Shown here: positions 7,855 through 32,294 of the stretch, in pieces
How the letters are laid out: the number at the start of each line of letters is the position of its first letter
Numbering within the stretch: the stretch's first letter is position 1
Origin: Rhizaria sp. SCN 62-66
Lineage: Eukaryota
Length of the DNA stretch: 32,294 bases
Direction of reading: 5' to 3'
NCBI GenBank assembly: GCA_001724265.1
Contig: MEDY01000205.1
Location: 62,001 to 94,294, forward strand
Notes under the pieces: generated by a model
What the model saw: the letters and a program-made list of their open reading frames with translations, nothing else
Told to the model about the DNA's origin: nothing
Databases searched by the model: none
Program-made: the position numbers and the translations under genes

Positions 7855-7953
7855 CTCAACAACGTAGGCGTTGCCATCGAGGACGTCGTAGGTGGAGCCC
7901 TGAATGACCTTAGCGCTGGAAGGAATAGCAAAGGCAGTGCCGCTGGTAGCCAT
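7855..7953 (-). CDS. Thioredoxin-like gene exon 1 (33 codons: MATSGTAFAIPSSAKVIQGSTYDVLDGNAYVVE)
   Basis: ATG at 7953 in AAGATGG context; the 99-nt open frame ends at a GTAAGC donor and supplies the beta-strand preceding the CxxC motif. Spliced protein is 185 aa. Confidence 0.88.
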
Positions 7954-11286: not shown

Positions 11287-11332
<46 letters not shown>

Positions 11333-14300
11333 TAGTCAGGCGTTTGTGGTTGCGTCTGCTGCCGCGATCGCGATCGCCACCGGCAACGCTGTCAAGACCA
11401 ACAGCTGTTCCGACACTGACAATGTCACTGCCACTGGCACTGGCGCGGGCGCGGGCGCGGGTCATGTGACTGTACCTGACCCTGCGACTGTGGCCGCCGC
11501 CGGTGCCGCTGTCCGCGCTGCCTGGCCCGCTTTCGCTCTCAGTACCCCCTTACCCGCGCATCTAAGTACCCCGGCGGCGAGTCTAAGTGCCTCGATGACC
11601 GCGCTTGTGGCCGCGGTGGAAGCAGCCGCGTTTGTTGGACCCGCGGCTCGGCTAAACCGTGCGGTTGCCCTTGGCCCCACCACATTGCTACAACAGCAAC
11701 ACACGGTTCACCGCAATATGACGAAGACTGAAACAGAGTCGAAGTCTCGCTGTGACGGTTGGGAGCTTGCCGAGACTGAAACTGACCTCTCTCAAGTCGG
11801 CTTTGGTGCATACTTTAACTACACCACCGCAAGCACAAACAAGAATGATAGTGATCACCGTAATGATAGCGCTGTGAACGACGATAGCTGTTCTGCGTTG
11901 CTTGAGAGCCACGCCCGCGCAGTACGCCGTCGCATCGCGGATACTATCACACTGGCGCCCGTCAACTCCAACCACGGACTGTGCTCCTCGTACCCGTCTT
12001 TGCTCCCGCTGCCGCGCAAAGCCACCTCCGCAGCGCCCGCTGACGCAGCCACAGCGCCCCCTGACATCGCGAGCGCTAATGCGCAAACCGCATCTGACGC
12101 TACCAGCTCTAGCGCTGGCACTGGCACTGGCTCTGGCACTGGCACTAGTTTTAGCGCTGGCTCCGGTACTATGAGCGCTGGCGCTGGTTTGCTGGCTGCT
12201 GCGGCAAAGTTCCGCGCCCGTGGCCGCCTACCAGTCGCCGTGTGGGCGCACCCACTGACCGGCGCGGTGCTACTGCGCGCCAGCCAGCCGCTGGCGGGGC
12301 TGGTGGGGCGCCGCTGCGAGGCCGATGAGGCGCTCGTCTCTCTCGCCGCGCAGGCCGCTGTTACGCACTGCGCGAACAGCAATAATAACAGCAATAATAA
12401 CAATAGTAATTGCTGTAAGCAAGCTAGTGCGAAGTGTGATAGGGATGATCAGCTGTTAGTTGCCACCGGTGTTGCAGGAATTGTTTCCCTCGCACACAAC
12501 AAGCAGCAGCAACAACAGCCACAACAGCATAACTCGAGTTCTGGTCCTGGCGCTCCTCCTTCTGCGACTCCTTCGCGTGCTACTGCTGCGCGTGCTCCTG
12601 CCGTCACGGCAGCGGCAGCGGCGTCGCAGCTCCCCCGCGTCGCGATCATAGACTGCCGGCCGTGGACTGCCGCTTTGGCCAACGCTCTCGTCGGCCGCGG
12701 CTACGAAACAGCGCGCAACTACGGCCCCTTTAGTGCGCATTGTGGCGTTGCATTCATGGACATTGGCAACATCCACGCGATGCGCAACGCATTCGACGCG
12801 GCAGCAGCGGAAACCACTGCGCCGGTGCTCTGCGGCTACGGTCTTTGCAACAACAGCACTTACCACAATAACGATAGTGACGTTTTGCGTGTTTCTGTTT
12901 CCGGCACCCCGTGTCCTTCGCTCTCGCTGCGGGCCTCGGCCCATCCGGCGTTGCTGCAATGGCTCGCGCACTGCCGCGCAGTCCTGGCCGCGGCCGCCGC
13001 CGCCGCGTCCCGCTTAGCGGACGACGGCGCTACGGTGCTCGCCCACTGCAGCGACAACTTCGACCGCACGACGCAGCTCTGCGTGCTGGCCCCGCTGCTG
13101 CTGGAGCCGCGCTACCGCACTTTCACCGGCTTCGCTGCACTGGTGGAGCGCGAAGTCGTGGCCGCGGGCCACTGCACCGCGTCGCGCGGCGCTGTTGCAG
13201 TCGGCAGGCGCAGGGGCGGCAATTTAAACATCGCTGGCAGCAACAGGAACGGCACCATTAATGGCTATGGCATTGGCTATGGGAACGGCTGCAGCTCTGA
13301 GAGTAAGTTCGATATCACAGTGAGCGTAGGTGGCAAAGGCCATCGCAATAACAACAACAACAATGACTGCAGTGTCAAGGCTGACAATGCTGCTAACGCT
13401 AGCGCAAGCTCTTGTGCGGAGGCTAACAGTGAAAACACTCAGTTTAGCCTAGCTGTCAATGGTGCCAACGCACACAGTGAAGAGCGTAAGCAGACATCCA
13501 GTCCTTCGCAGCCAGACTCCCGCCCTCGGTCAAACGACAGCGACGGTCCGAGTAGAACTGTGAACGCAGACACAAAGAGCAGCGTCTCTGGTGCTAGGGC
13601 TGGGTCCGGTCAAGTTCCCAGTCCAGTGCCGAGCCCTTCGTCGGCGGCCTCGACGCTTTTCTCATACGTCTCCGCCGCCGCCGCCGCAGCCGCCTCCTCT
13701 TGGTTCGCCGCGCCTGACAACAACAGCAACAACAGCTCTAGTGCAAGCTCAAACTCTAACTGCGGCTCCAATAGTTCGTCCTCTTTGGATAGTACGAATA
13801 TGGTTGATTTGCGTTCTCGCTTTGTCCCCCTCGCCCGCGCCGAGGCCCTCACAGTGCACGCCTCCCACTCCAGCTCGCGGTCACCCATCCTGCTCCAGCT
13901 GCTCGACTGTGTCCACCAGCTCGCAGTCGCGTTCCCCGCGGCGTTTGAGTTCACGCCTCTCTGGCTAGCCCGCATCGCCGCCGCGGCCACGGCAGACCCG
14001 GCGGGCGGCGCGGGCGGCACGTTTGCCTGCGACGCGCACGCGGCGACTCTGGCGCTCAGGAGCGCTGTGACAGGCGAGTTGCTCCCGCCGCCACTCGCCA
14101 CGTCTGCCTCCGACTCTCCCGCCAACGACAATCACATCGGCAACAACAATAACAGGGACAGCAGCGGCGGCGGTAGCGGCAACGGCGGCGGCGATATCGG
14201 CAAGGCTTGCAACAGTGTCTGCAGCGACGACGACGGCAGCGCGACTGAGGCTGCTCGGATGGGCCCCGCGACCGCCGCGCATCCGCTGGGGCCGTCCCCA

Positions 14301-15776
14301 GCGCCCCCAGCAGGGCGGCGCCCACCGACGACTTCAGTCCGCGCCGGCACCGACTCAGCCTGGCTGCGCCTGCTCCACTGCCCCGCCGCGCGCGCCGAGT
14401 GCCGGAACCCGCGCTACGAGTTGCCGCGGCCCGGGGCGCTGGGGGCGGCGCGCGCGCGGCTGGTGCTGCCGGCGGCGCTGACTGGCGCGCCGCACTTGGC
14501 GCACAGTCACACGCAGGGGCAGGGGCACGCACACGGTCACTTTTCTCACGGTCACTCCGCTGCCCACGGCCACTCCGCTGCTCACGGTCACTCTGCGAAT
14601 AATGGCACTGACACTGGCGCTGGCGCTGGGGCTGGCACTGGCGCTGGGGCTGCGGCGGTGAGTGAGAGTAAGAGCAATGGTGCGGAATGCGACTGCACAA
14701 GCAGTAGCTGTAGCAGCAGCGTTACTGTCAATCCCAATGTCGCAGCGAATGCCGTCGATGCGTCTGCTGTTGATAAAGCGTCTCACGAAAGCAGCGACAC
14801 TGAGAGTCACAGTCAGACTGACTACCACAGTCTCGGTTTCGATGAAGTCGGGGTGAACGACGGTCTGGCTGTCTGGGGTGAAGTATTCCTGTCGCACTTA
14901 CTTCCAGAGAGTACTCACGCGCAGTCTAAGGGTCATTGCGTGAGTACTTACACCGAGTGCAGGTGTGGCGGTGCAAGCATGCACGGTCTTGGCTGGGGCA
15001 ACCAACTCGATCACCCTAGTCCTGTTCTTGATCACATTAACAATCACTATATCACTCACAACAACAACGACACGAGCGTTAATAATGTTAATGCAAACAC
15101 AAACGAGAATAAGCAGGTCGCAACCGGTGCAAGTGATCCGAATGGCAGTAATCGTGATGGTATGGCGCAATATCAATACCAGTACCAATATCGCCCCCTG
15201 ACCCAGTCAAAACAGTCGCATCCTCTGGCACCCGCTCGGAATCACTGCAACGCATCTAAGTGTGGCTCTAAAGGGTCATCTAAGGGGTCGAATGGTGCGC
15301 TGACACTCTTTTCAGTCCCTCGTCATCACATCACTGCAAACTCAACCCCGCACATCGACAGCTGCGACAGCTATAACGGCAGTTGCACTGTGAGTGCAAA
15401 TGCGAATGCGAAGACTGAAGCTGCGGTCAGGGCTGCTGTTGCAGCGCGTCAAAAGCGTCGTGTTCCTGCAAACCCGCGCCGTGCGAAACCTGACTGCTGC
15501 GACGCAGCTGCTGCCGCTGCTGAGGCTGAGGCTGAGGAGGCTGAGGCTGAGGCTGAGGAGGCTGCGGCTGAGGCTGAGGAGGCTGAGAATGATAGTGACG
15601 GTGCACTGGGTTGGAGCGGACTGTTGCGCGGTATCGTGTCCTTGCCGATGCAGGTGTACGGCATTGCTGCCTCTGCACTTGTGCCTCCGATGACAACCAC
15701 AACTACGAGCACAACAGCAACAACAACGACTCAGGTCGCAACGAAAGCGACAACGTCCGAAGAAGCGAACGAGTAA
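9429..15776 (+). CDS. Myotubularin-family phosphoinositide 3-phosphatase (~2115 aa) with extensive low-complexity insertions
   Basis: First in-frame ATG at 9429. PH-GRAM-like fragments (LLWPRETVLL, GSLVLTTFRLL, SVPLSGLATVD) precede DGW, NSNHGLCSSYPSLL, AAKFRARGRLPVAVW, LLRASQPLAGL..RRCEADE, IIDCRP..ALAN…GYE, FMDIGNIHAMRNAF, VLAHCSDNFDRTTQLC, EPRYRTFTGF..LVERE and SPILLQLLDCVHQL…FPAAFEF. Stop is TAA. Confidence 0.93.
14547..14597 (+). repeat. 18-bp coding tandem repeat (about 3 copies) encoding HGHSAA
   Basis: CACGGTCACTCCGCTGCC / CACGGCCACTCCGCTGCT / CACGGTCACTCTGCG. Confidence 0.85.
15519..15587 (+). repeat. Coding (GCTGAG)n-type microsatellite encoding an Ala-Glu tract
   Basis: Repeated GCTGAG/GAG units translate as AEAEAEEAEAEAEEAAAEAEEAE. 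A similar AEAKAE tract lies at about 11030-11082. Confidence 0.8.
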
Positions 15777-16690
15777 TATCGCTTGGGACTTGAAATAACC
15801 TTAAATATCAAATGGCATTAACGATTTGAATGTGATTCTATATATAACCGAAACAATTGTTACAATAAACCGAACTTTTTTTATAGCCCACGCAAGGATC
15901 AGCAGAGATCGCTTGCATTTGACGAATGCACGCATGAGGCGTGTGGCAGTGGGTGGGGTGGCTGGTGGTTCGCAAAAATTTGGGGCTGGGCTGGAAAGTT
16001 GATTTTTGTCAAGTTTGGGATATGACGAGCTCTGTGAGACTGTCCTGGTCGTGGTTTGTAATTTAATGAGCATCGAACGCGCAACAGTACTCGAACGCCG
16101 CGAATCTCTTGTTTGTGGCTCGCTGCGTTGCATCGGCCCATGTGAATTCGACCCACAAAGCGAAGTCTCTTGGCAATCCGACGAAGGGCAGGGCCGCTCT
16201 AGCTTCCCTACGCGACGCCCCCCTGGCCACCGCAGTGGGTTCTAACCCTCCGATTTAAACTCCGGTGCTGCTCGTTGTGCTTTTGTTGCGCATGGCCGTG
16301 CTAGAGCTTTGTAGCTGCCTACTCTGCTGTATAAAGTCGCTTTGGTAGCAGACAAGCGAGATACCCTTCACCTGTGTGGACCACCACAGGCTCGCGCCGG
16401 CCTTTGAAATGCCGTCTCCAGCCGTGCGTGTCGCCGTTGTTTACTCTTTTCCACCCTGTTCTAGCTTACGTTATTGTATTTCGTTTTCATTTTATGCGCT
16501 TTTCCTCTCCCACTCTTTAGTCTTCTCAGGAACCAGGCTCCGAAAGCCCCACCTCCCTTCCTTCACTCTTTCTCTCCGCTTTGCTTTGCTGGTCACACCA
16601 GCAGCCGTCCCTCGTCACCTCGCGCTCCGCCGACGCTCTCTCTCTCCGTCTGCCCCGCGCTCCGACGCGTGCGCCTTCTCTTCTCCCCAC

Positions 16691-16765
16691 ATGAGCTCTA
16701 CCTCTCAGGGCCAAGGCTCGGGCGGTGGTGGCCTCAACCCTCGAGGCAGCCACAACAACAACGCT

Positions 16766-16798
<33 letters not shown>

Positions 16799-19700
16799 GC
16801 GCTTGAAGTCGCCGGCTTCGGCAACTCCGACCTTTTCCCGTCCCCTGACTCTCCCTCATCCGCCGACCTCGCCGCCGCCGCCGCCTTCGCGCGCCACAGC
16901 GGCGGCTCCCGCGCCTCGATCATGCCCGTCGCCCGCACTGCGATGCGCTTCCCCGCGCCCGGGGTCTCCGTCGCCGCGCTGAACGCCTACGCCGCCGCCA
17001 CGGCCGCGGGGCCCTCGGTCGCCCCCGCGTTGTCCACGTCTGCTTCTGCCGCCGCCGCATCCGCTAGCACTGCTGCAACAACGTCCTCATCCTCATCGTC
17101 GTCCTCTACTGCGAAAGTGGTGAGTTCTAGCGGCACCAACCCCGCCTCGACCTCTGGCGCCGCCGGGCTCGCACCCCTGGTCACGCGCCCGGGCCTCCGC
17201 CCCCGCAAAACCGCCGCCCGCGCCACCGACCCGTCATCATCCTCCTCTCACTCTGCTGGCTCTGGCGCTGGCTCTGCGACGAGCGGTCTACAGCCGGGCA
17301 AAGGCCCCGGGTTCGCGTCCTACAACTCCATCTCCGGTCGCAAGTGCCTCGTTGCCGGTTGCAAAGACATGCGTCTCGCCCGCGGCTACTGCAATAAGCA
17401 CCAGCGTCTCCTCGGCCGCGCGGGCCCCTCGGCCTCAGACTCCGACTCCGACCCCGCCTCGGCAGCCGCCGCCTCCTCGGCCTCCCAGTCCGCCCCCGGC
17501 GGCAGCGCCGGCGGCGCGAGCGGCGGGCCCGGCGGCGCGAGCGGCGGCCCCTCGCTCTCTCTGACCGCGACCACCGCGCACGACCTCACTGCGCCGTCTT
17601 TGTCTGCGCTCGACACGCTGCTCTCGGCCCACCCGCTCTCGTCAGCGAGCCCTTATGTGCTCTCCCTCTGGGGCGCGGTCCGGGCCCTGGCGGCTCAGGT
17701 CACCGCCGCCACGGGCAAGCCCGTCGCCATCTGCTCCGCCACGGCCACTGCCGCGGCTGAGCCTGCCTCCGCCGCTCCTTCTTCTTCTGCCGCCGCCGCT
17801 GCTGCAGCTGCTTCAGTGTCTTCAGGAGCGAACTCCGTCGCCGGCGCTGGTCACAAGGCGCTGCCGCCGCCGCTGTCTCTGCACCGCGACATCTTCGCCC
17901 TGTCGGAGACGCTGCCTCTGGCGCACGCCGTGCTGGCTGCCGCCGCCGCCGCCGCCGCCGTGGCCGCGACCTCGTCCTCCTCCGCTGCCGCCCCGTCTGC
18001 CAGCGGGCCTGCCAGCGGTGGCCACGCCTACGCCTACGCCACCACGTCCGCCGCCGCCGTGGCCAACGCGGGCATCACCGCCGTCGCGCCCTCCGCGGCC
18101 GCGCTCGCCGCCGCCACCGCCGCGCACAACGCGCTGTCGCCCGAGTCCCGTAGCTTGGCGGCGGCCGCGCATGAGCCTGACGCGATGTCGCCGCTGCCGG
18201 CCCCCGCGCTGGCGCCGCCGCTGAACAGCGTGAGCGCCACGACGTCGAGCTCTCGCAACGGCGGCGGCAGCACTGGCAGTGGCAACGGCTCTGGCAGCTG
18301 CGGCAACGCGGCGACGCAGAGTGGGTTGGTGGCATTGGGGCCTGCCGCGGCCGTCGGTGCGCGCGCCAATGCAACTCTTGCTCTCTTCAACAACAACAAT
18401 AGCGGTGATAATAACAATAACAGCAATCACGCTGCCGTGTACACTCCGCGGACTCCCTCGGCGCGCGTGGCCCTGCCGAGCTACTCGGTGCCGCCGCCGT
18501 GCGCGCGCGAGCCCATCGTCGACGTGCAGGTCGTCACTGCCGCCGCCCGCAAGACGCCGCCCACGGGCTACACCGTGGTGACCAAGACTGTGGGCGGCCG
18601 CTCGGCGGACCTCAACCCGCAAGGGCGCAGCATGTTCCTGGCCTACCGCCGACGTCCCGTCCCCCCCGCGGCCGCAGCCGCTGCTGCCGCCGCCGCCGCT
18701 GCTGCTACTGCCGCTGCTGCGAACAACAACTGCGGCGGCAGCGGCAGCAGAGCTGTGAGCATGAGCGACAGTGCGGCTTCGTCGTCCAACGCCCCGCTGG
18801 GCCCCGCCCTCGCGCCGCAACAGGTGGCGTACTATAATGGCAACAACGCCGTCACCAGCTCAAACTCAAGCTCCAGCGCCAGCTCTTCTGCCTCCGCCGC
18901 TGCTGCCAATGGCGGCTACGACGCCTCCGCCGCGAGCACCGACTACACGCAGAGTCTCAGCATGAACAACTCCGCCTCGCTGGCGGCCGCAGCAGCCGCG
19001 GCCGCGGCGGCGGCGAGCGCTGAGCCCGTCACCCTGCGGCCTCTGACCGCGCTGTCAGTGCTCTTCGCCGAGGCCGGCGAAGAGCCCCCGCTGGGCTTCG
19101 AGCTCATCGCGCGCACGCTGCCGTCCAACCCCGCCGGCACCGGCGCCGGCGGCTCCTCCGCGTCGTCCTCGGCGGCCGCCGCTGCCGCCGCGGCCAACGC
19201 CGCCGACTCCGTGCCGCTGCCGGCGAACCTCAACTTGGGCACGCCCTCGCCGCGGTGCGTGTTCCTCGCGGCCCACCGCGCCGCCGCCGCCCTCGATACC
19301 ACCCACCTCACAGCCAGCGATGTGGCGTCCTACTGCGGGCCCGCCGCCGCCGCCGCGCTCGCCGCCACGCACGTCTTCGCCAACGCCGTCGCCGCGGGCA
19401 AGCCGCCGGTGGCGGCCGCGGCGGCCGCGGCGGCAGTCGGACCGGTGTTGTCGGCGCGCGCGGCCGCGCAGATCGAGACTATTCTGTCGTTCGGGTACGG
19501 GTTCGGGCCCGGCGCGGCCGTTTTCTCAGAGGCGGCGCTCTTAGGCGTCGGCCCTAGCTCGAGCGCGAGTGCGAGTCTCGCGGCTGCCTTCGCTACCGCC
19601 CCCGCCGCCGGCCCTTCCACCGGCGGCTCCAGCACGGCTGCTGCGACTGCCGCGGTGTCATTTGCGCAACAGACGGCGACCGAGGCGATGGCTTTTTTCG

Positions 19701-22700
19701 GAACCGTGCCGGGCGTCCCGCGCCTCGGCTGCAACAGCGCCGGCGGCCCCTCCGGCACCACCGGCGGCGCTGAGAGCTCCGTCGCAGCCTCTCTGCTCTT
19801 CGGCGCGCCCTGCTCCCGCCCCAGCCTCACTCCAAACAACTCGAATAGTAGTGGCGCATCGAACATTGTTATGCAGAGCAAGATGCACGGCGGCTCGCGC
19901 GGCTGCGGCGCGCCCATCGTCAACGTCGGGATGTATTTCCCCCAAAAAGAGCGGCTTCCGGTCGACTGGCACGTGATCAAGTGGACGGCGCTCGGTCACC
20001 GCGCCAACATCAACGCCGGCACGGACGCTCCCGAGGCGCGGCTGGCGTTCGAGGTCGACGTTCACCCCGTGTTGCACGCCGTGTACGGGCCGATGCTGGC
20101 TGCGGCACCGCTGTACGACGCCGTCGTCGCGGCGGCGACCGCGGCCGAGGGGCACAGCGGCCACGGCTTCGGCCACCCGTACGGCTACGGCCACAGCAAC
20201 AGCTCTTCTTACAGCAACAGTTCTGTCGCGGTCGCGGGGTCCAGCTTCGGCCTCGCAGTCGCCGCCTTCACCCGGCTTTGCGCCATCATCACGACCGCGC
20301 TCTACTGCGCTGACGAGTCGCTGGTCCTGGCCGCGCTGGCCACAGTCCGCCTGCTTCCGCTCGCGTCCTGCCCTCCCGGCGCTCTCAACGCGCTCATCTA
20401 CACCGTGTGCGACGCCGTGCCGTGCTTCCTGGCGTACTTCTCGACCCACGGCCACGCCGAACTGCTCGTCTGGCTGCAGTCTGTCGCGCAGACGTGTTTC
20501 GCGCAGCTCACTGTCCACACCGTGCTCCGCGTGCTCGACGTCTGCTTCCTGCTGCGGCACGAGGACCGTTCCTGCGACGGGTCGAAGAACCTCGTCGACG
20601 CGCTCATCACGGAGGGCAACAAGAGCTCGTCGCTGCTGATGCCGCCCTCGTACCTATGGCCGTCCTCCGCCGCCGCCACCGCCGGGCTGGGCCATCTGCT
20701 TCACCACAACAACAGCGTCGGGCCCGCGGCGGCCAGCGCGGGCGCGAATGTCAGCGCGTCGTCCGCGGTCGGCAGCGGCGGTCAGCTCGCCACGGTGCCG
20801 TCGTTCTCCTCCTCGCTCTCCAATAATCTCCCTGCGAACAGTAACAACAACGTGATCGAGATCGATACCAGTGCTGCTGCCGCTGTCGCTGGGGGGCTCA
20901 CAGTCCCTGCCTCAGGCTCTGGCTCTGGGGCTGGGAGTTTGTCCCAGCCCTCGACCCCGCTGAAGCAGCGGTTCGGAGGAACGCACAGTGGCCTCCGCCC
21001 CCAAAAGCACAACAACGCACACAGCTCAACCGCGAGTACGATGCCTGCGTCAGTCCCGGCGTTGGCCCCCGCCGGCGCACTCGAGCTTTCTCTCGTAGAA
21101 GCGACGCCTCTGGCCAGCAACAATGAGGGTGGCGAGGAGCACTTGGACCTCGTGCTGACGCCGCCCCGGTCGAGCCTGTCGCTGTCACCGTCCCCCGCCG
21201 CTGCCGCCGCAGCCGCCGCAGCCGCCGCGACCGCCACTCCTGGTCCCGCCTCAACCCCTGAGGCCGTCGCCGCCGCCGCTGCGGCCGCCGCCGCCGCGGC
21301 CGCTGGCGCAGAGGCCGAGGCCGAGGCCAATGACCAGGTCGAGCGTATGCACCGGGAGCTTATTGCAGCTGCGAGGGAGAAGAAGGCCCGCCGTGAGTCG
21401 CTCACTCTCGGTGCAACTCCCCATTCTTCTTCGGCAAACGCCAACCACGCCGCGAGCAATGTCTCTGGCGCGAACAGTGTCGTCGCAGTGACTGGCGGCG
21501 CGGGCCCCAACGAGGGCCGGTCGCTCCTGCAGAGCCCCTCCCCCGCCCCCGGGCCCGGCTCCGTCTTCAGCAACAACGCTGGCGCCAGCGCTGGGAGCAA
21601 CAACACTGGCGGGACGAGCGTCGCGAGCGCCATGACTGTCTCCGGCGGCGGCCACGTCAGCGGCCTGATCCACCACGCACACCCCGCTGCCGGTGGCAAC
21701 CACGGCGGCCTCGTGCTCGGTCACCACGCGGGCCCCGGCGGCAACTACGCCACTCTTAGCGCCGTCAGCGCCGCCACCAACCCCTTCGCCGCCATCGGCG
21801 CCGCCGCCGCGGGTGCCGGTGCGACTGGCGGCGCGGGCGCGGGCTCTGCCGCTGCGAGCTCGACGGGCGCTAGCGCCGCCGGGTCGCTGGCGGGCACGCT
21901 GACGGGCGCGGGCGTCGCGGCCGCCGCTATGGCAGTGGCCTCGGGCAACGTCTCTCGCTCGGTGCACGACTTTTGCGCGAATATCATCCGCAGCATCGCG
22001 GATATGGTGGTCGACGCCAGCGAAAACGCGCTCCTTGTAGGCGAGCTGCTCGGGGGTGCCGACTCAGGCTCCGGCGGCGGCGGCGGCAGCAGCGGCAGCT
22101 GCAGCGACGAAACCGTCGCCAACATCTCGCTCCTGGTGAGCAAAGTCATCGCAGAGCGTGTGCCGCGCAACTGGCTGCTGCTGCCGCCGCAGGGCTACAG
22201 CATCAACCCCGTGCTTTTGAAGCGGCCGTCGCTGCAACACGGCGGGTTTGGCTCTGCGACGCTGCCCCCGGGGGGCCTCGCGTCGCTTGCGCTCGCGCAG
22301 CCGCTCTCAAACAGCAGTAACCACATCAGCTCCAGCTCTAGCGCGAGTGGTCGCAATGTGAATGGTAACACTGCGGCGGCGACGGCGTTGGCTGCCCCCA
22401 GGACGCACTCGCCACTGCCGACCCTGTCCCCTCAGGACTCGGTGGCCTCGCTGCCGCCGCCGCCCGCGTTGGTCTCCGGCGAAACCACGCCTGAGCTGTC
22501 GACGGGCTCGCTCTCCGCCTCCAGCTCAGCCAACGGCGGCGTTGCCACCGCTACAACGGCGACTCCTGCGGCTGCTGCGGCGGCTGCGAACGCGAACGGT
22601 GATACCGCAGTCACGGCGATTGGTGAGGATGCGTTTTTCCTCCCGCCGTCGCTCTCCAACATCAGCGACGGCGACGCGAATGGGAGCGTTAACGCGTCGC

Positions 22701-25700
22701 CTGAGCTTGAGCCTAAACAACCCAAGCAGCAGCAGCAGCAGTCGACTAAGAAGAAGCTCGGCGCTCGGTCCAGCAGCAACCTCAACGCCAGTGGTGCCAT
22801 CCCAGACATCAGCGCACTCGCCCGCTCCCCGTCCTTCGCCGCCACTGCGTCGGCTAATCCGAACGCGACTACAAGCGCAGCTTCTGGCGCCGAGCCCGCG
22901 ACGAGTGGACTGGTCACCGGCTCCGGCTTGAACCGGATGTCCTCGCTCTCCCGCAGCAAGACGATGGCGCTCGATACGCTCCGCCAAACGCTGCTGAACC
23001 GCAAAAACAAACAGCAACTCGGCGCAAACGCCCCTAGCGCGAACATCGCGACTGCTGCTGCTGTTGCTGCTGCCTCGCCTGAAGCAGGCTCCAGCGCGCT
23101 CACAGTCACCTGCGCTGACCCTGAGTCCACCGCGACTACGACTGCGACCGTTGGTCCTGTGAAGCTGTGGGCGTCCCCGCAGTCGACCGCCACGGCCGCC
23201 GACCTCGCGACCGCGCTCGCCGTCCCTAGTGCTGCAGCGACGAACGTGCCGTCGCCTCTCGTGCGCCCCGGGAGCGGCGGCAGCAGCGCGCGCCTGCCGG
23301 CGCCAACGCCGCTTGTCACCTCGGCCGCGGGCACTCCCCTCGCCGGCACCAGCAGCAGCAGCACTGTTAACGGCAGCGGCCGCCACACGTTCTTCTCCCC
23401 TCAGCACCAGCAGTCGAGCTCTCTCTACGGCACCTATAGCAGTAGCAGTACCAAGACGTGGACGCGCGTGTTCCACCCGAGCCCTGACGTAAACCCTGAC
23501 GGCACCCCGTTCGAGTACCGCTACCTGCGCATCGCCGACCCGGCGCGCGCGCTCGAGACGGCTTCGGAGCGCCGCGCGCGCCGTCAGCTGGAGCAAGAGC
23601 GCGCCGACTCCGGCCTCCACGCCGCCGAGTGCCGCGACGCCATGGTCCACGCCGCCGCGGTGCAGCACGAGCTGCGGACCCGCGCCGTGCTTGCGCACAG
23701 CCACAACGCGCACGTCGAGCACAAGGCTGAGCGCGCGCTGCTGTCCGTTGTGCTGTACGTCTGCCGCGTCGCCGCCTGCGAGTGGCGGCCGGCGGTGTCG
23801 CCTGCGCAGCCGCCGGCGCCGCTGCCGCCGCTGGGACTGCCGGCCGGAGACATCGCAGCCGCCGCGGCGGCGGCGGCCAATAGCGCTGGCCCTGGCGAGT
23901 CGCCCCACGCGGCCGCGCTAGCCGTGCTCGCCGCCGCCACCAGCAGCGGCAGCAGCAGCAACAGCAACAGCAGCGGCAGCGGCGCTGGAGTCGACGCCGA
24001 GTCGGTGTGGACCACCGGACTCGGCTTCGGCGTCGCCGCGCCCGTGTACCCGATCCCGCTTTCGTGGTCCGCACTGTCGCGGTCCGAGGCCACGAAGCGC
24101 CGCGTCCACGCGCTCAACCTGCTGCTGCACGTGCTGCAGCGCTCAGAGGGCTTCTTCAAGTCCAACAAGGCGTGCGCGGCTGTGTTGAAGCGTGTCGTGG
24201 TGCCTGCGCTCGTGCAGTGCTGCAGCGCTCACTGGGAAGCGCCGACGGTCTTCCGCGCCGCGCTGCAGGTCTTCGTGCACTTGTTCCAAGTCTTCCGCGA
24301 CGACCTGGTGCTCGAGCTCGGCGCGGTCATGGACGGCGTGCTGACGCCTCTGCTGTCGTCCTCCCTCGTCGCGGTCGACACGAAGCGCGACGTGCTCGAG
24401 ATGATCGCGCATTTGCTCTCAGGCCCCTCCGCGCTCTTGTCGCTGTACGCCGCGTACGACGTGTCGTTGCGCCGCTACGGCCTCACCGTCTACCAGGGGC
24501 TCGTGACGGCGCTCGCGGCCGTGGTGCAGGGCGACGTGCGCCCCGTCTCGCTACTATTGCCCGACGCGGGCGCGCCCCCGCAGGCCGCCGCGGAGGCCCG
24601 CTTTACCGCCCTGGCCGGTTGGCACGGCGTTGCCGCGGCCTACGCCGCCGAGCCTGCCGCCGCTGCCGCCCTCCGCCGCGCCGCGCTGCGCGTCCTAGTT
24701 CTCCACCTGCACTCGCTGGCGCAGTGGGCAGGCGTACCTGCGCTCGAGCTCTCGGCCGAGGCGCGCGCCGCGCTGCGCGCCACGTGCCAGACGTTTCTCC
24801 CCGTCCTCCAGCGGTCGCGGCGCTTTCCCTGGCGCGCCGGCACGACGGCCACCGAGCGCGCCGAGGCCGCCGGTCTCGCCCCCACACAGCTGCAGCAGCA
24901 GTCTAGCAACGGCGCTGGTTCTGCGTCTGTGGCGGCGAGTCCCAGCAACATGGACGGGTCGATCGCCTTCTCCTCGATGTCGATGTCGATGGATGACATC
25001 GACGACGCGGCCGCCGCGGGCGAGCTCACCGGCGGCGGCGGCGGCGTCGTGCCGACCCCCGGCCTCCGCTCCGCCAGTCTCCGCGCGCGCGCCGCGCTGG
25101 CCGAGGTCGCCCGCCGGCTCGCCGTGCGGGAGGAGGCGGCGACGATGCTTCCCTGCCAGGTCGAGGGCGTGCTGGAGGACTTCGTGCGGCTGCACGTGCG
25201 CGCGCGCCGCCGCCGCGCCGTGCGGCGGCTGCGCGCCCGGCTGACGGCCTCCGCGATCGCGGGCGCGCGCGGGGGCGTCGTGTCCCCGCCGCCCCCGGAG
25301 GGCGACGAAGAGGCCAGTCTCCGCGAGGCCGTCGTGGAGGAGGAAGAAGAGGAGGAGGAGGACGCGGCCGAGCGCGCCTCCACCTCGCGGTTGGGCCCCT
25401 CACCGCAGCTGCCGAATGTCGTCGAGGGCCGGCGCCGCGGCGGCGGCGGCCGCGGCGGCGCGTTGACCGGCGGGTTCGACTCCGCGCTGCACGACGACCA
25501 CCACGACGACGAGGACGACGACGACGAAAGCGACGACGAGGACGACGACGAGCGGGACGTCGCCGCCGCCGCCGCAGCCGGGGTCGACGTGGCAACAGCA
25601 AAGGCTGCTCGGTGTGCCGCGGCCGCCGGTGTCGCCGCCAGTGCGGAGCACCTCGACGCCCTCGTTACCGACAGCATTTTCAACAACAACTCGAGCGCTA

Positions 25701-28700
25701 ATCCTAACGCTGGGAGCAATTCTAGTAGTTTCTATGCGTTCTCGAACGCCGGCAGCAGTGTCATCTCCCCGTCTTCGGCCGCGACTGGCTCCCATAACGC
25801 CATCAGCGGCAGCGCGAACATGTTGACGGGCTCGAACGTGCCTCTGACGCTGGCAGTGCTGGCCGCGGGCCGCGCGCAGAGCGACAAGTGGCAGCGCGCC
25901 TGCGCCGCGGCCACCGCGGCAGTGCTCGGTCTGCCGGTCACTCTCCCGGAACCCGAGCCTGAGCCCGAGGCCGAGCCCTCTGAAACCGAGGCCAAGGCCA
26001 AGAATGCGACCGCTAATAAGAATAGCTGCGAAGAGGATAGCAAGGAGTCCCAGCAGCCGCAGCCCTCGCCGGCGTCCTCCGTCGCCCCCGCTGCTTCGAC
26101 CACGGTGGTGCTGAAAAAGGGCTCTCTGCACACCGCTGTGTCCGTGCTGCGCGCGTTTGACCGCGCCTGGGCGACTCTACCGATGATCGCACTGTACCTC
26201 TACACCAACTCGGTGCTCGACAAGAGCCTCATCGGTGACTTCATCGCCAGCGGCTACGACAAGGTGTGGACCGCCGGCCAGTTCGCAGACCTGCGCCGCG
26301 TCTACGGCCGCCTGTTTGACTTCACGGGTATGCGGTTCGACGCGGCGCTGCGGCTGTTTCTGTCGGGCGCGGGCAACTTCCGGATGCCTGGCGAAGGTCA
26401 GAAGATCGACCGCATGGTGGCGATGTTCTGCGACGCCTACTGCCGCGACAACCCGTCCGCCGTGGCGGCCAACACGCCGACCACGAACCAGACCGCCGAG
26501 CTGGCCGTGGCGCGCGCGGCGACCTTTTCGCCCAACGAGACAGTCTTCGCGTCCGTTTCAGCCGCGCATTTGGTGTGCTTCGCGCTGATCATGCTCAACA
26601 CTGACCACCACGACCCGCGCCTGTCCAAGGGCGGCGCCGGCGCCGGGGCGCAGCAGCAGCAGCAGCGTAAGCGTATGACGCTCCCGGCGTTCTTGCGGAA
26701 TCTCCGCGACGGCAACGGCGGCTACCCGATCGACCCGCGCTTCCTGACGGCCGTGTACAGCTCGATCGCGGCCGAGCCCATCGAGTGGATCGGCGCCGGC
26801 GGCACAAACAACTCCGCCGCCGCGATGGGCGAGGACGACCATGCCCTCGTGCTGGCCGTCCACGGGAAGCTCAGCGCGCTCGCGGGCCCCCGCCCCTCTT
26901 CTATGGCTGCCGCCGCCGCGCAGTCGCCGCTCTCCCTCTCGCAGCCTCAGTCTCCGTCTCCGCAGTCGTCTCAGACTCAGACAGCGCTCGGTCTGCAACA
27001 GCTCGCTTTCCGCGGTAACGGCTCCGCGTCCTCCGCCGCCGCCGCCGCACTGCTGAGCTCGATGCTCGACTCGTGCGCCGCCGCCGCGCCGTCGTTCGCG
27101 GCCGCCTCCCCGGCCGCCGTCGTCGCCTTCACCGGCCACGGGCTGGGGGCGGGCATCACCGCCGCGGCCGCCGTGCCCGCCGCGCCCTCCGTTGCCGCGA
27201 CCAGTTCCCCGGCATTCGCTCTCGTCCCCGTCGCGCTCCCCGGCCTGACGTATATGCCGCTGCCGGCCGCGCTGCCGGCGGGGGAGAACGAGCTCGCCGC
27301 CGCCGCGCTCGCCGCCGCCGCTGTCGCCACCGTGCCCTCATCCTCGTCGTCGTCGCACCAGGTGCTGTTGCCGAACGGCACGCCGGCGCCCACCGCGGCG
27401 CAGCTCGTGCAGTTCACGCGCGCACGCGTCGGTTTGACCCGCGCGGGTGTGAGGCAGACGCTCGGCCGTTTGCGCCACCTCGCGATGGCTGTCGCCACCC
27501 CCGCCTCTCAACAGCAGCAGCAGCAGCAGCAGCAGCAGTCGATGGGCGGCGGCGGCGGCGCCACGATGGCCGCGGCCATGGCCTCCGCGCTCGCCTCTGG
27601 GCTAGTCTCGGCCACTGGCGGCTTCGCCTCAGGCGGCTCAGGCTCTCTGGCCGGCCTCAGCAGCGCGCTCACCGCCGGCGCCGTCGTCCCCGCGGGGTCC
27701 ACGACCTGGCTCTGGCCCTCGGCGTCCTCCCCGGCGCTGCAGACGACGACTCAGATCGCCGCCGAGATGTGGGAGACGGTGTGGATCCGCGTCGCCGCTG
27801 CGCTCGCCGCGCGGGTTGACGCCTCGGTGTTTGTGAACTCGAGCGTGAACGATGCCAATAACGCACGCGCCAACAGCAACGGCGAGGACCACACAGACGG
27901 GGAAGTCGACACGCTCCACCTCTGCGTCGATGCGCTCGCCTATGCCTCCACGCTGTCGGCGGTGTTCTCGCGCGCCGACGCCGCCGCGATGCCGCAGCCG
28001 GCGCCGCGCAACGTCTTTCTCGCCGGCGGCCGCACGGCCGTCTTCGCGAGGCTGCTCGTCTTGCTCACCCACGCGCTCGACGGCGTGGAGTCGCGCCGTC
28101 TGCGGCATATGCTGCAGCAGCGGATTCAGTCCCGCTCGCTCTCGCGCTCGCTCGTCTCTGTCGCCGGTGCGGGCAACGGCAACAATAACTACAACAGCAG
28201 CAGCAGAAGCCTTGGCGGCAGCATCGGCGGGGGCCGCGCGGCGTCACTGAGTGTGTTCGGCAGCTCCGGCGGCGCCGGCAGCAATGCAGGGGGGCAGCTC
28301 GGCTCTGGCGCTCTGCAGAGCAACAGCAACGGCGGCGCCAACTCTTCGGCGAACGGCAGCAGCAGCAGCGGCAGCACCGGTAGCAACAGCGAGGACAGCA
28401 AGCGCCCTGAGAACAAGCTCGAGCTCCTGCGCAAGCTTCTCTTCTCGTCCGACCTGTCTGATTTGACGACTGCATTAGTGGACCACTTCCACCAGCGGCG
28501 CCAGGACCAGCGCCAAGAGGCGCGCCGCCGGTCCCCGCGCAACAACCGCCCCAGACTGATGTCCGCCGCGCCGCTCGTGGTGCTGCCGGCGTCGCCGGTG
28601 AGCGCGGCTGGGTGGTGCAAGGCGCTCTTCCTCGTCGCGTCCGTCGCCAAGAAGGCCGTCAGCACGCAGCGCCGCATGGAGGTGCTGCGCCAGCTGCAGC

Positions 28701-29116
28701 GAGAGTTCGGCGGCGAGGTCGCGCTTGTCCTGGCCGTCCCGCCCGGTCTCGCCGGCGCCGGGCCCGGGGGCGCGGCGGGCGGCGCGGGGCTCGGCTTCGC
28801 GGGGCCGCTGCTGGGCGCGAACGGCGCGCTCCAGGTGCGCGGCAGCCTCTCGGGCGCCTCCGAGGCCGACCGCCACACGACCGCGCTCGTCACGGCCGCC
28901 GCGGCCGCTGCGGGCGTCGGCGGCATCGCGGGCGGCATTGGCGCCGGCAGCGCTCTGTCCGGGTCCGCGCTGGGCGCCGCGGGGGCCGCCGCGGGCAGCG
29001 TCGTCGGCGCGGTCGCGGGCGAGGCGGCGGGCGGGCCCGCGGCCGGGGGTGCCAGCCGCTCCCTGATCAAGGCCGGGCAGCTCGTCAAGATCGCTTCCTC
29101 CACGGGCAAGCACCAG
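16691..29116 (+). CDS. Large Sec7-domain Arf guanine-nucleotide exchange factor (BIG/GBF-like core), exon 1 (12.4 kb)
   Basis: ATG at 16691 follows a pyrimidine-rich leader. It contains a CX4CX9CX2H motif (17345-17401), three MABP-like repeats (about 18509-20056) and a HUS-like region (about 24090-24470, …LLSLYAAYDV). The Sec7 domain (about 26110-26790) shows LDKSLIGDFI, FDFTGMRFDAALRLFL, FRMPGEGQKIDR (Glu finger 26393-26395) and FALIMLNTD. HDS1-like MWETVW and the PH start RSLIKAGQLVK follow. Confidence 0.92.
16766..16795 (+). repeat. (CAG)10 polyglutamine microsatellite
   Basis: Ten perfect CAG units; another CAA(CAG)9 tract lies at 27509-27538. Confidence 0.9.
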
Positions 29117-29260
29117 GTACGCATCTTACATATTACATATTCCACCATATATCTCGCAATTCTATAAAAATCGAAAATATTGTTTGTTTACATTATTTTC
29201 AATCTACTTTATCTCACTTTACTTTTTCGTCTGCCTCCTTTGTTTTGTTCGTATCTATAG
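29117..29260 (+). other. Spliceosomal intron (144 nt, phase 0) within the PH domain of the GEF
   Basis: CAG|GTACGC…TTTGTTTTGTTCGTATCTATAG|GAG; AT-rich with an in-frame stop. Splicing gives KIASSTGKHQ-EYAFFLLSDLLLYA, a contiguous PH strand pattern. Confidence 0.93.
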
Positions 29261-30634
29261 GAGTATGCGTTTTTCCTGTTGTCGGACCTGCTGCTGTACG
29301 CGACATCCTCCGGCGGCAGCGGCGACGAGTCCCGTCGCCTGCGCTTGCACCGCGCCCTGCACCTCTCGCTGCTGCGCATCGTCAACATGCAGGGCCCGCG
29401 CCCGTCGCAAACCTCATCTGGCGGCGCGAGCTCGAACAGCAACAACGGTCCGCACTTGTTCAAGGTTGTGTCGCCGCAAAAGACGTTCGTGGTTAGTGCG
29501 AGCGATGCGCGCACTAAGGCGGCGTGGATGTCCGCGATCACGGCCGCGGCCAAGGCGCAGGTGGCGAAGCGCGCCGTGTGGGTGCGCACGACGCTCACGG
29601 TCATCACACTGCCTCCCGTCGCGGGGCCCGCGCCCGCGCCGCACACGCCCGCGTCCACGTCCGCGATCTCCGGCGCGGCGGCGGGCTCGTCCGCGCTGCT
29701 GATGCCGCCGTCGGTGTCGACTTCAGCGATGACCTTCGCATCCACGGTTACCGGCACCGGCATGATGACGCGCACGGGCGCTGGCGCTGGCGCGGACGGT
29801 GCGCGACTCACGCTCAAGATCACCGAAGAACGCTCCGGGTCGCGCGCGGACGACGACGATGACGACGACGATGATGACGCCGCCGCGGTCGCGCTCGGCC
29901 TCGCCTCGCCGCGCCACCGCAACACCGAGAAGGCCGCCTCCCACGCTGGCGCTAACGCTGACGGCGCGGTGCTGTCGCGCGTGCCGTCCTCGGACCCTTC
30001 GCACCCGGGGCCGCACGCGATGTCGCACCGCGGCAGCCTGGATATGACCGCCGCGCCTGCCGCAGCCGCAGCAGCCGCTGCAGCAGCAGCAGCAGCAGCA
30101 GCTGCGGCGGCGCTGGCGGAGGGCTCTGGCCAGGCGCAGCGGCACCGCCGCACGCAGTCTCTCGCCGCGGCCCGCGGGTCGGGGTTCGGGCCCGGCAGCG
30201 GCGCGCGCGCGCTGATGGCGTCCGCGACGACGGCGCCGCTGAGCGAGCTGGAGCGGATCCGGCGGTACTCGCACTACGCGGCGCACTCGGCGCTGCCGCT
30301 GCCGCTGCCGCTGGCCGTGCCCGCCGAGGCGACGCCCGCGGCTGTCGCCGCCGCGCAGCAGCAGCTGCTCGTGGTGCAGCAGGGCCAGGGCCAGGTGCAG
30401 GCCAACCACTGCCGGTTGTGTCTGCGCGTGTACACGCTGTTCCGCCGCAAGGCCGTGTGTCCGCTGTGTCGCGTGCACGTGTGCAACGAGTGTCTGGACA
30501 AGCGCGCGCCCGTGCCCAGCGGGGAGACGCCCGGACAGGGCAAGACGACGATGCAGAAGGTGTGCGACTCGTGCTGGGGCTTCTTGACCAAGATGATTGG
30601 GGACCACCACCACATCTTCTCCGCCAGTGAGTAA
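29261..30634 (+). CDS. Arf-GEF exon 2: remainder of an FGD/Phafin-type PH domain plus a C-terminal FYVE-like zinc finger
   Basis: FFLLSDLLLYA…FKVVSPQKTFVVSASDARTKAAWMSAI, then the eight-Cys finger CRLC..RRKAVCPLC..VCNEC..KVCDSC (30410-30574). Stop is TAA. Spliced protein is about 4599 aa. Confidence 0.92.
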   Translation, partial: EYAFFLLSDLLLYATSSGGSGDESRRLRLHRALHLSLLRIVNMQGPRPSQTSSGGASSNSNNGPHLFKVVSPQKTFVVSASDARTKAAWMSAITAAAKAQVAKRAVWVRTTLTVITLPPVAGPAPAPHTPASTSAISGAAAGSSALLMPPSVSTSAMTFASTVTGTGMMTRTGAGAGADGARLTLKITEERSGSRADDDDDDDDDDAAAVALGLASPRHRNTEKAASHAGANADGAVLSRVPSSDPSHPGPHAMSHRGSLDMTAAPAAAAAAAAAAAAAAAAAALAEGSGQAQRHRRTQSLAAARGSGFGPGSGARALMASATTAPLSELERIRRYSHYAAHSALPLPLPLAVPAEATPAAVAAAQQQLLVVQQGQGQVQANHCRLCLRVYTLFRRKAVCPLCRVHVCNECLDKRAPVPSGETPGQGKTTMQKVCDSCWGFLTKMIGDHHHIFSASE

Positions 30635-32050
30635 AAGCACGCAACTTTGCAATCAAAGCTCGTTCGCTTCAGCAATAACAAAAATATGGCCGTGCAGCAT
30701 GAAGGAATGTTTATATGGCTAAAAGCTGTTCCCCTTTTCTGTGTCGTTTTGTTCTTGCGTCTTCATAACCCGTGTGTGTGTCTAAAACAACAACTGTGTA
30801 TGACTTCCTGTAGTGAGGTCTGGGACTGACTGGCATACTTACTTTGCTTTGCTTGGCTTTGCCTCTCTCTTGGTTCTCGTGCGTGCATTTCTCTTCGTGA
30901 TGTTTGTTTCTCTCTCAGTCTTCTTTTTGTTTGTCTTGCCTGTACATGTCTGTCTGTCCGTCCGTCCGTCCGCTCACCTGTTTATATATATACGATGTAT
31001 AAGTCCATTTTTTATTTCGATATGCGTTTTTGCTCGCTTCACGTATTACGTGTTGCTAGTTTGTTGGCGCCCTATGATTGTGATGATTCTCTTGAGTATG
31101 TAGTTGCGTGTTTTGCTGCTTAATGATGTGTTCAAATCTGTTTCAATGTGTGTGCTTGTTACTCTGCGTGAGTGAGGAATGTGTTACTGAACAAATGACC
31201 TGATACTTCTATCTTAATGGTGTTGTGCTGACCTTGATCTTGTTCTAAAGATCATCACGACAATCGGTCAGAAGATGATAAGGAAATGCTCAGTTCGTAC
31301 TACATTTCCTTGTGTCTGTTGAGTCTCACTCGGTTATTTCTTATTTTCTTTTGATCTGCTTTGTTCACACATTCTTTTTATCCTCTTAACATCAAAATCA
31401 CAACAACAACTCTCGGTGCAACATCAATTCCACTTAGTCATCGTTCAACAGTCACTTACTAATGCACATTCTTGTGTGCATTTTTTACGTCCACAACACA
31501 TCGTAGTATCAGATTTCAATGCGTCCGCTGTGTGCTCCTTGTATATATATAAACCCATAAACACAACAGTTCTTTTATTTCATTCAAATCTATCGAATCT
31601 CATCTCTGTAATTATTTGGTAAGCATCCCTGAATTTTCGTCGTTGTGATTCCACGTAAGCAACTAATACGAATACGAAGTGTAGACTGAATGATGTCTTC
31701 TTTCAAATTGCAAATTGTATTGGTTTTGTAGTATTTTGTTTGCAAACTCACTCTAAACACGGACTGGCGGTCGCTAAATGCTGCTGAAGTTGGGATATAA
31801 TAGTTATGTCCAGCAACATCGCGATCGCAGTCAGTCAGTCAACCAGTCAGTCCCCACGACTCTGTTTGCTTTCTCAGCTATTCTAAGTATCTTATTGGAA
31901 CATGTTTTGTCCCTATCGGGCACGCTACGACTCTCCCGTCTCGAATCTAGATGACTCGAGAAGGCTCTTGTCTCTAGACTCGAAGACTCCATTCACAGCA
32001 GCCTTGTTCACTCCGCATTGTTAAGAGTCTTGCGTGTCTGCGTCTTGCGT

Positions 32051-32280
32051 TTACGCTGAGTCCTTAGGGGGCAGCGCCTTGTCGCGCATCTCCTTATCAA
32101 ATGTCTTGAGCGCGGCGAGAATGGCCTTGACGCCCTTGGAGCGGAAGCCCTGGAGCGCGGCCGTGCGCGCGGGCCCCTCGGCGCCCTCGAGCTTGATGCG
32201 CGTCACGTCGTGGTCGTCGGAGCCGAAGGAAACCTCGGCCAGGTAGCACGAGCCCGTCGCGGAGAAGTCGTCGAGCTCGA
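32051..32280 (-). CDS. 3' end of a gene, probably an Aha1 N-domain (Hsp90 ATPase activator-like) protein; 5' part lies outside the window
   Basis: High-GC3 codons. GSCYLAEVSFGSDDHDV…FRSKGVKAILAALKTFDKEM resembles the end of the Aha1_N fold (G-x-x-x-I-P-x-L-S, acidic loop, terminal amphipathic helix). Stop is TAA at 32051-32053. Coding status is clearer than the family call. Confidence 0.6.
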
Positions 32281-32281
32281 G

Positions 32282-32294
32282 ACACACACACACA
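32282..32294. repeat. (AC)n dinucleotide microsatellite at the window edge
   Basis: ACACACACACACA; may be intronic or a contig-end artefact. Confidence 0.6.

Follow-up and report, generated by a model that had tools for sequence, protein, structure and literature searches.

According to Pipaliya et al. (2019; PMC6727740), the domain architectures of the large guanine nucleotide exchange factors of Arf GTPases (Arf-GEFs) BIG and GBF1 are highly conserved: all BIG orthologues retain HDS4, the HUS and HDS domains are found in no other protein families, and it is the cytohesin-derived GEFs that gain and lose domains readily, whereas BIG and GBF1 do not. Supplementary file 1 of the same paper lists a Bigelowiella natans BIG paralogue, BnatBIGd (1,184 aa), as "Sec7_N, Sec7, FYVE Zinc Finger", together with several stramenopile "BIG/GBF" paralogues carrying Sec7_N and Sec7 only. 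Furthermore, a fusion of MABP and Sec7 is in print for the Phaeodactylum protein PHATRDRAFT_49198 (de Souza & Aravind 2010; PMC2881412). In this work, we analyzed a stretch of 32,294 nucleotides from Rhizaria sp. SCN 62-66 (assembly GCA_001724265.1, contig MEDY01000205.1, positions 62,001 to 94,294), hereafter the window, in whose own numbering all positions are given; its plus strand carries a gene for an Arf-GEF of 4,599 aa, with the ATG at 16691 and the stop codon ending at 30634.

We assign a probability of about 0.7 to the reading that this gene belongs to a conserved and essentially undescribed protist subfamily of large Arf-GEFs sharing its core with BIG/Sec7p. As read from the sequences, the domains of this subfamily follow one another as [Cys/His motif]-MABP-(DCB-like)-HUS-Sec7-HDS1 (N-terminal part)-PH-[FYVE-type finger]. 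The architecture is, thus, unusual but not unique: the original prediction had taken the gene for a singular chimera, whereas HUS, Sec7, a PH-type domain and FYVE were found together in 16 of the 39 relatives scanned, as expected of a conserved family. The same prediction did not recognize the architecture as a described one; this stands in so far as no description of it as a family was found in the full-text literature, in a search that left most subscription journals outside, and falls in so far as parts of it are in print (PMC2881412, PMC6727740). The words "FYVE" and "MABP" do not occur in the main text of PMC6727740, nor does "Sec7" in the main text of two FYVE surveys.

Organization of the Arf-GEF Gene

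The gene consists of two exons:

16691..29116, plus strand: exon 1, 4,142 codons of open frame, GC content at third codon positions (GC3) 0.85, 60% identity to the relative P0005
29117..29260, plus strand: intron, 144 nt, GT..AG, AT-rich; the PH profile is continuous after splicing only
29261..30634, plus strand: exon 2, 457 codons plus stop, with the Pfam PH and FYVE matches

The two exons lie in open frames of the plus strand at 16349-29167 (4,272 codons) and 29261-30634 (457 codons). The intron, the only one of the gene, has a G + C content of 29% and contains an in-frame TAA and an in-frame TAG; its removal joins ...STGKHQ in frame to EYAFFLLSDLLLYA.... We constructed a PH hidden Markov model (HMM) on 15 relatives; on the spliced product its match spans the junction with 59.8 bits (positions 11-114, E 1.3e-20), on exon 2 alone it scores 44.2 bits (positions 31-114), and the unspliced read-through gives no match. 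Moreover, P0005 has an identical junction peptide at the point of the window splice. The splice is, therefore, supported, since the PH domain is complete only in the joined exons and the junction peptide is shared with P0005. The GC profile of exon 1 gave no sign of further introns; its only patches below 50% GC are two Asn-rich coding stretches (48% GC). As to the start codon, GC3 is 0.55 in 16409-16690, 0.78 over the 600 nt from 16691 and 0.85 across exon 1; because of this jump at 16691, the ATG at that position is judged reasonable and is the likely start of the gene.

In size, the protein is about 2.5 times what is usual in the family, and Ala, Ser and Gly make up 21%, 12.5% and 9.3% of its residues, respectively. 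The recognized domains amount to about 1,185 residues (about 26%), the remaining 74% or so being low-complexity linker; inserts rich in Ala, Ser, Gly, Asn and Gln account for the size of 4,599 aa. The tandem repeats in the window are short codon-level arrays only.

It might be argued that such a protein is an artefact, in which a GC-rich open frame has merged adjacent genes (for instance, one encoding MABP, another the GEF and a third PH-FYVE): GC-rich DNA does yield long spurious open reading frames (ORFs), the longest in the other frames across this gene reaching 463 aa, most of the protein is linker, and the gene model was built from the sequence alone. However, exon 1 runs for 4,142 stop-free codons at a uniform GC3 of 0.85, with no AT-rich gaps save the two Asn-rich stretches, the PH domain is complete only across both exons, and in compact relatives a single polypeptide holds this domain set with its order unchanged. 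We consider this explanation highly implausible and regard the gene, on the present model, as real and intact, that is, as one spliced gene. The original prediction of one spliced ORF had its coordinates right.

Distribution of the Domain Architecture

Probing with the window Sec7 domain retrieved 164 proteins at E ≤ 1e-5, and the best of them were proteins of 753-1,968 aa, not BIG or GBF1. Eighteen proteins were scanned for domains; Sec7 was found in all 18, HUS in 16, PH in 17, the Pfam MABP in 12, FYVE in 5 and ACBP in 1. An exhaustive HMMER search of 1.84 billion representatives with the piece comprising MABP blade 3 and the DCB-like block gave 37 matches at E ≤ 1e-3, 20 of them at E ≤ 1e-10; the 21 longest matches include 11 proteins with HUS, Sec7, a PH-type domain and FYVE, three with HUS, Sec7 and DEP, two with HUS and Sec7 only, and five fragments without Sec7. 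The count of 16 relatives out of 39 given above is the sum of the two scans (5/18 and 11/21).

The closest relative is P0005, retrieved by a length-matched search, a giant protein of 3,557 aa that is incomplete at the N-terminus, shares 60% identity with the window protein and has Sec7, HUS, PH and FYVE. The family members are mostly of 1,250-1,970 aa, and it is in relatives of about 1,340-1,970 aa that one polypeptide has these domains in an unchanged order. Named relatives are those of the diatom Nitzschia inconspicua (P0127) and of the chrysophytes Paraphysomonas (P0016) and Ochromonas danica (P0022); the search with a whole-family profile that yielded P0127 also matched DENND4C (E 6e-21). 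A cluster search with P0008 gave a Bacillariophyta Sec7-PH cluster (0.82) and BIG clusters (0.79), weak leads that were not used as evidence.

The ends of the Arf-GEFs in this family look modular from these comparisons. In P0163, P0166 and P0167, retrieved with the MABP blade 3 and DCB-like piece, we observed a DEP domain and no PH or FYVE match; in P0010, retrieved with the Sec7 query, an ACBP domain follows the PH domain.

The HUS-Sec7 Core

The core of the protein comprises the following features:

20246..20662, plus strand: DCB-like six-helix block, residues 1186-1324, family profile E 2.9e-19
23999..24835, plus strand: HUS with conserved helices flanking it, residues 2437-2715 (2466-2593 being the Pfam core), Sec7-like_HUS E 2.1e-17
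26105..26791, plus strand: Sec7 catalytic domain, residues 3139-3367, Pfam E 8.4e-33, profile positions 36-183
26393-26395, plus strand: Glu finger E3235 in FRMPGEGQKIDR, within the Sec7 domain
27707..28144, plus strand: HDS1-like, N-terminal part only, residues 3673-3818; window plus P0005 against the family E 5.3e-6

When set against Sec7 domains of known structure, the window Sec7 conserves PGE..QKIDR (FRMPGEGQKIDR) and MLNTD and has inserts of about 27 and about 12 aa. In the window protein and P0005, the Pfam Sec7 match starts at about profile position 32-36, and an insert containing poly-Gln precedes the conserved RKRMT segment; the match starts at about 3-15 in most compact relatives and at 32 in P0011. 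With both its Glu finger and its MLNTD motif preserved, the protein is predicted to exchange GDP for GTP on a GTPase of the Arf family.

We compared a profile built on 15 compact relatives with those of 20 BIG/Sec7p-type and 17 GBF1/GNOM proteins. Against BIG, residues 483-1629 of P0008 correspond to residues 63-1115 of P0021 in one piece (889 columns, E 1.2e-81). By Pfam, the BIG protein P0021 has DCB at 55-246, HUS at 401-559, Sec7 at 753-935 and an HDS2-type domain at 1285-1367; the alignment, thus, takes in the latter half of DCB, HUS, Sec7 and ~125 residues at the start of HDS1, where it ends, with no alignment of the family profile to BIG past residue 1115 of P0021. Against GBF1/GNOM, the alignment is shorter and covers only HUS to early HDS1 (E 2.5e-51). 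A large GEF core of the BIG/GBF type, as originally predicted, is supported by these values.

The HDS1-like block of the family, taken alone, matches BIG HDS1 with E 3.1e-12 and GBF with 1.4e-3, over the first ~100-125 residues. A family HDS1 HMM gave no match on the window protein; it matched P0005 (2e-5) and a BIG protein (2e-7). The partial HDS1 of the original prediction is, therefore, supported at the family level; for the window protein it is supported only transitively, through the resemblance of the window and P0005 piece to the family. The linker that follows HDS1 matches neither the BIG nor the GBF profile significantly, and the Pfam models Sec7-like_HDS (HDS2/HDS3), BIG2_C (HDS4) and TPR_28 (PF23325) are absent from the window (E ≤ 1) and from all 39 relatives scanned. 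By these comparisons, the protein has a BIG-like core, with its distal HDS domains replaced, in agreement with their predicted loss.

The domain list first proposed lacked the DCB-like block, which lies between MABP and HUS and is, consequently, not N-terminal, being preceded by MABP. The family block matches BIG DCB with E 2.7e-4, at a probability of only 41%. The AlphaFold2 model of the window block has six helices, with a predicted local distance difference test score (pLDDT) of 86.2; Foldseek matched it to the DCB of BIG1 (5ee5; probability 0.98, template modeling score 0.50) among many generic helical repeats, and armadillo repeats of a generic kind had similar scores, none of the matches reaching E ≤ 0.001. 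The assignment of residues 1186-1324 to DCB is tentative.

The N-Terminal Region

Upstream of the core, the following features were recognized:

17345..17401, plus strand: Cys/His motif C-x4-C-x10-C-x2-H, residues 219-237
18509..18652, plus strand: MABP blade 1, residues 607-654, family MABP HMM independent E-value (i-E) 9.6e-10, pLDDT about 85-90
19031..19279, plus strand: MABP blade 2, residues 781-863, split by an inserted stretch of about 30 aa, HMM i-E 3.5e-6 at 781-809
19898..20062, plus strand: MABP blade 3, residues 1070-1124, HMM i-E 6.9e-12, pLDDT ~90
21947..22210, plus strand: conserved block, residues 1753-1840, conserved with P0005
23456..23776, plus strand: conserved block, residues 2256-2362, conserved with P0005

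The Pfam MABP model (DUF2464) reaches only E 0.34 on the window protein. A family MABP HMM was built on the MABP region of the 15 compact relatives, the window and P0005 being left out, and it gave three matches on the window protein, with a whole-protein E-value of 5.5e-25. The same HMM matched the full domain of a crocodilian DENND4C (E 1e-28) and 40 of 42 family proteins; one BIG protein, one of the GBF1 type and the neighboring gene gave no match. According to these data, the MABP domain of the window protein is read as real, with three blades of one beta-prism, between which lie inserts of low complexity, 126 and about 206 residues long. In blade 2, the second half (ANLNLG...FLAAHR) was assigned by eye from its conservation in P0005 and has low model confidence.

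In the AlphaFold2 model of residues 598-1150, the blades have a pLDDT of 85-93; the input alignment misplaced the second half of blade 2. Foldseek returned first the MABP domain of MVB12B (3tow, probability 0.98) and fourth 2qp2, which is the MACPF and MABP protein plu1415 (PMC2881412). This fold comparison is consistent with an MABP domain, and not decisive. The modules predicted at both ends of the protein are, thus, recovered, MABP at the N-terminus and PH with the FYVE-type finger at the C-terminus; profile searches recover Sec7, HUS, PH and FYVE with Pfam and MABP with the family HMM.

A motif of the form C-x4-C-x(8-13)-C-x2-H occurs in nine of 42 family proteins, each time upstream of MABP, and in none of 125 other proteins. 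Its form is C-x-x-x-G/D-C ... Y/R-C-x-x-H, and its carriers are the window protein, P0006, P0007, P0008, P0135, P0136, P0138, P0139 and P0163. The motif probably binds zinc and could be a small uncharacterized zinc knuckle; it matches no Pfam family and no PDB sequence at E ≤ 10.

The two blocks lying after the DCB-like region and before HUS, at residues 1753-1840 and 2256-2362, are strongly conserved with P0005 and match no family, BIG or GBF profile; Pfam (E ≤ 10) returned no family for nt 21941-23800 (residues 1751-2370), which include the block at 2256-2362. These blocks may be peculiar to the lineage of giant proteins.

The C-Terminal Region

Downstream of the HDS1-like block, two domains were found:

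29054..29569, plus strand: PH domain (coding 29054-29116 and 29261-29569), residues 4122-4245, split by the intron
30404..30586, plus strand: FYVE-type zinc finger, residues 4524-4584, eight Cys, non-canonical motifs

On exon 2, the Pfam PH model matches with E 1e-5 over profile positions 22-104. The PH domain of the family matches the generic PH model and the DH-associated ones (SOS1_NGEF, alsin, ARHGAP20) to about the same degree, and it lies about 750 residues past Sec7 in the window protein and about 220-310 in compact relatives.

The Pfam FYVE model matches the window with E 1.4e-8 and 35.1 bits (cutoff 27.8), and a comparison with PDB sequences gave weak matches to ZFYVE19 and RUFY1; a FYVE-fold zinc finger is supported by these sequence matches. 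The finger reads ...ANHCRLC...FRRKAVCPLC...QKVCDSC; it is without WxxD, RRKAVC replaces R(R/K)HHC, and KVC replaces RVC. WxxD and the HH of R(R/K)HHCR were absent from all 18 family FYVE fingers examined, and RVC was kept in 6/18.

A possible explanation of the gene would be a phosphatidylinositol 3-phosphate (PI3P)-directed Arf activator of endosomes or phagosomes, whose FYVE finger reads PI3P as in EEA1, FGD and Phafin. All eight Cys and the Pfam match are in place, PH precedes FYVE in the same order as in FGD and Phafin, MABP has been linked to endosomal proteins (PMC2881412), and the upstream neighbor is a myotubularin-like PI3P-phosphatase gene, which is suggestive only. However, the motifs that are missing or altered here, namely WxxD, R(R/K)HHCR and RVC, are those building the PI3P pocket (PMC2837644), and the first two are defective throughout the family fingers. 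Because the finger lacks these motifs, the targeting to endosomes or phagosomes that had been inferred for this protein is left without sequence support; the finger probably does not read PI3P in the classical manner, and we regard a PI3P-directed activator as unlikely.

Sec7 Phylogeny and Origin of the Family

For the phylogenetic analysis, 122 complete Sec7 domains and that of the window were extracted by HMM; the partial P0048, P0111 and P0115 were skipped, and P0128 had no complete match. After thinning of the plant GNOM copies, 78 sequences were kept, and the long branches P0130 and P0057 were dropped, leaving 76 rows and 197 columns. The tree was rooted on five IQSEC sequences.

The family (22 rows) forms one clade with support of 98/94, and GBF forms one clade (100/99) with the family outside it; BIG was not recovered as a single clade. 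The window protein and P0005 group at 100/98 inside a FYVE-bearing subclade of eight members (100/98), and the other subclade of the family contains diatom and chrysophyte proteins that end after PH. On these sequences, the MABP-HUS-Sec7-PH(-FYVE) proteins are a family with a collinear domain set and a monophyletic Sec7. A Sec7 phylogeny had been proposed as a check against BIG, GBF1 and cytohesins; the present tree, which covers BIG, GBF and IQSEC, sets the family apart from GBF and does not place it inside BIG.

A cytohesin-derived or mosaic GEF, in which a cytohesin-type Sec7-PH cassette was joined to a BIG-like N-terminus with no loss of a BIG tail, would agree with the ease with which cytohesin-derived GEFs, and not BIG or GBF1, change domains (PMC6727740), and with the position of the family Sec7 clade outside BIG and GBF. 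The PDB matches of the Sec7 domain are also undiscriminating (BIG1 5e-14, yeast Sec7 6e-14, ARNO 6e-13). However, such an origin would have to account for the HDS1-like block between Sec7 and PH, with its match to BIG HDS1, for the unbroken DCB-to-HDS1 alignment with BIG, and for a PH domain lying hundreds of residues past Sec7, whereas the two are adjacent in cytohesins. We hold this origin to be decidedly unlikely; the domains flanking Sec7 argue, at the level of sequence profiles, for a BIG-type ancestry.

Several observations weigh against a subfamily with a core shared with BIG/Sec7p. The Sec7 tree, which contains no cytohesin sequences, places the family as sister to BIG + GBF (94/88) and not inside BIG, and the approximately unbiased (AU) test only fails to reject a clade of the family and BIG (p 0.125). 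Sec7 profile positions 1 to ~35 are unmatched in the window protein and P0005. Compared directly with BIG, the HDS1-like piece of the window and P0005 reaches E 0.013, at the correct place, and their DCB-like piece E 0.2 (0.011 against GBF), which is not significant; Pfam (E ≤ 10) returned no family for the DCB-like, HDS1-like and Cys/His pieces of the window. Lastly, the AlphaFold2 MABP model (residues 598-1150) has a mean pLDDT of 56.8, and the 3tow match is confined to a single blade (54 columns, E 0.055), no match reaching E ≤ 0.001.

More tentatively, and with rather less confidence than we would need to favor it, the family could be a third, old lineage of large Arf-GEFs, either sister to BIG + GBF1 or an early offshoot of BIG, distributed across stramenopiles and perhaps Rhizaria, that traded the HDS2-4 tail for MABP, PH and then a FYVE-type, DEP or ACBP module. 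If true, this would mark a lineage-specific Arf-controlled trafficking route and would contradict the statement that HUS and HDS occur only in the invariant BIG and GBF1 architectures (PMC6727740).

Possible Role of the Rearranged Ends

Returning to the subfamily with a BIG/Sec7p-type core, a scenario for its function can be depicted. In yeast Sec7, HDS1 mediates membrane- and Arf-GTP-dependent activation (PMC3520889), and the part of HDS1 retained here may, by analogy, keep it. The recruitment role lost with HDS2-4 would have passed to the N-terminal MABP and to the C-terminal PH with its variable module (FYVE-type, DEP, ACBP or none). Coincidence detection by these modules would then place the activation of Arf at a post-Golgi or endocytic membrane. 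The MABP domain of MVB12B is said to bind acidic lipids. MABP has also been proposed as a membrane adaptor (PMC2881412).

The gene and its relatives represent a counter-example to what is stated in PMC6727740, in that their BIG-like DCB/HUS/Sec7/HDS1 core is without HDS2-4 and its ends, which bind lipids or proteins, are exchangeable; that survey evidently counted such proteins among its "BIG paralogues". The family offers a natural experiment on the membrane recruitment of large Arf-GEFs and, in diatoms, chrysophytes and the GC-rich host of the window, a candidate marker of a trafficking route that would be lineage-specific. It does not open a long-standing question.

Neighboring Genes and Composition of the Window

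Upstream of the Arf-GEF gene, a frame of 2,159 codons (9297-15776, plus strand) encodes a protein with a myotubularin-like phosphatase domain (Pfam E 1.3e-64) and an intact C-x5-R (CSDNFDR), likewise swollen by inserts rich in Ala, Ser and Asn. A gene of the PI3P-phosphatase type adjoining an Arf-GEF with a FYVE-type finger is a curiosity, no functional link between the two being evidenced.

On the minus strand, long frames are found at 2-2989, 2838-5465 and 5466-6581; they abut or overlap and may be separate genes or exons of a single one. The frame at 2-2989 extends beyond the start of the window and contains a UCH ubiquitin-hydrolase domain (E 7.3e-42); those at 2838-5465 and 5466-6581 have no Pfam match. 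The region 6581-9297 parts the divergently oriented genes. The window is GC-rich, with a GC content of 60-74% in the genes (about 71%, with GC3 0.85) and 39-45% between them; for the intergenic regions 6600-9300 and 30635-32294 the values are about 39-55%. Scans of the whole window for tRNAs and against Rfam gave no match.

Comparison with Known Systems

The closest described systems are BIG1/BIG2 (ARFGEF1/2) and yeast Sec7p, with which the family shares HUS, Sec7 with its Glu finger, an HDS1-like start and a probable DCB remnant, all collinear; unlike them, it is without HDS2, HDS3 and HDS4/BIG2_C, adds MABP, PH and the FYVE-type finger, and forms a separate Sec7 clade. GBF1, GNOM and Gea1-2 have HUS and Sec7 in common with it and are the next-best word-search matches after the family itself; however, the family has no TPR_28 C-terminus, its profile alignment to them is weaker, and its Sec7 domains again form a separate clade.

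Two further proteins can be compared by description only. PHATRDRAFT_49198 is the only printed MABP + Sec7 protein found, and its description in PMC2881412, as far as that account goes, names no HUS, PH or FYVE; it probably belongs to the diatom and chrysophyte branch of the family, with P0127 of Nitzschia. BnatBIGd is a rhizarian HUS-Sec7-FYVE protein, for which the entry in PMC6727740 lists no MABP or PH.

Other systems share single modules. In cytohesins, TBS and ARCC, Sec7 is followed downstream by PH, as in the window; cytohesins are without HUS, DCB and HDS (PMC6727740), whereas the PH domain of the window lies far from Sec7, behind the HDS1-like block. FGD and Phafin have PH before FYVE, as the window protein does, but the FYVE-type finger of the latter is without the PI3P motifs. 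Finally, MABP is shared with MVB12B and DENND4/Crag; its catalytic partner is there a Rab-GEF or an ESCRT-I subunit, and here an Arf-GEF.

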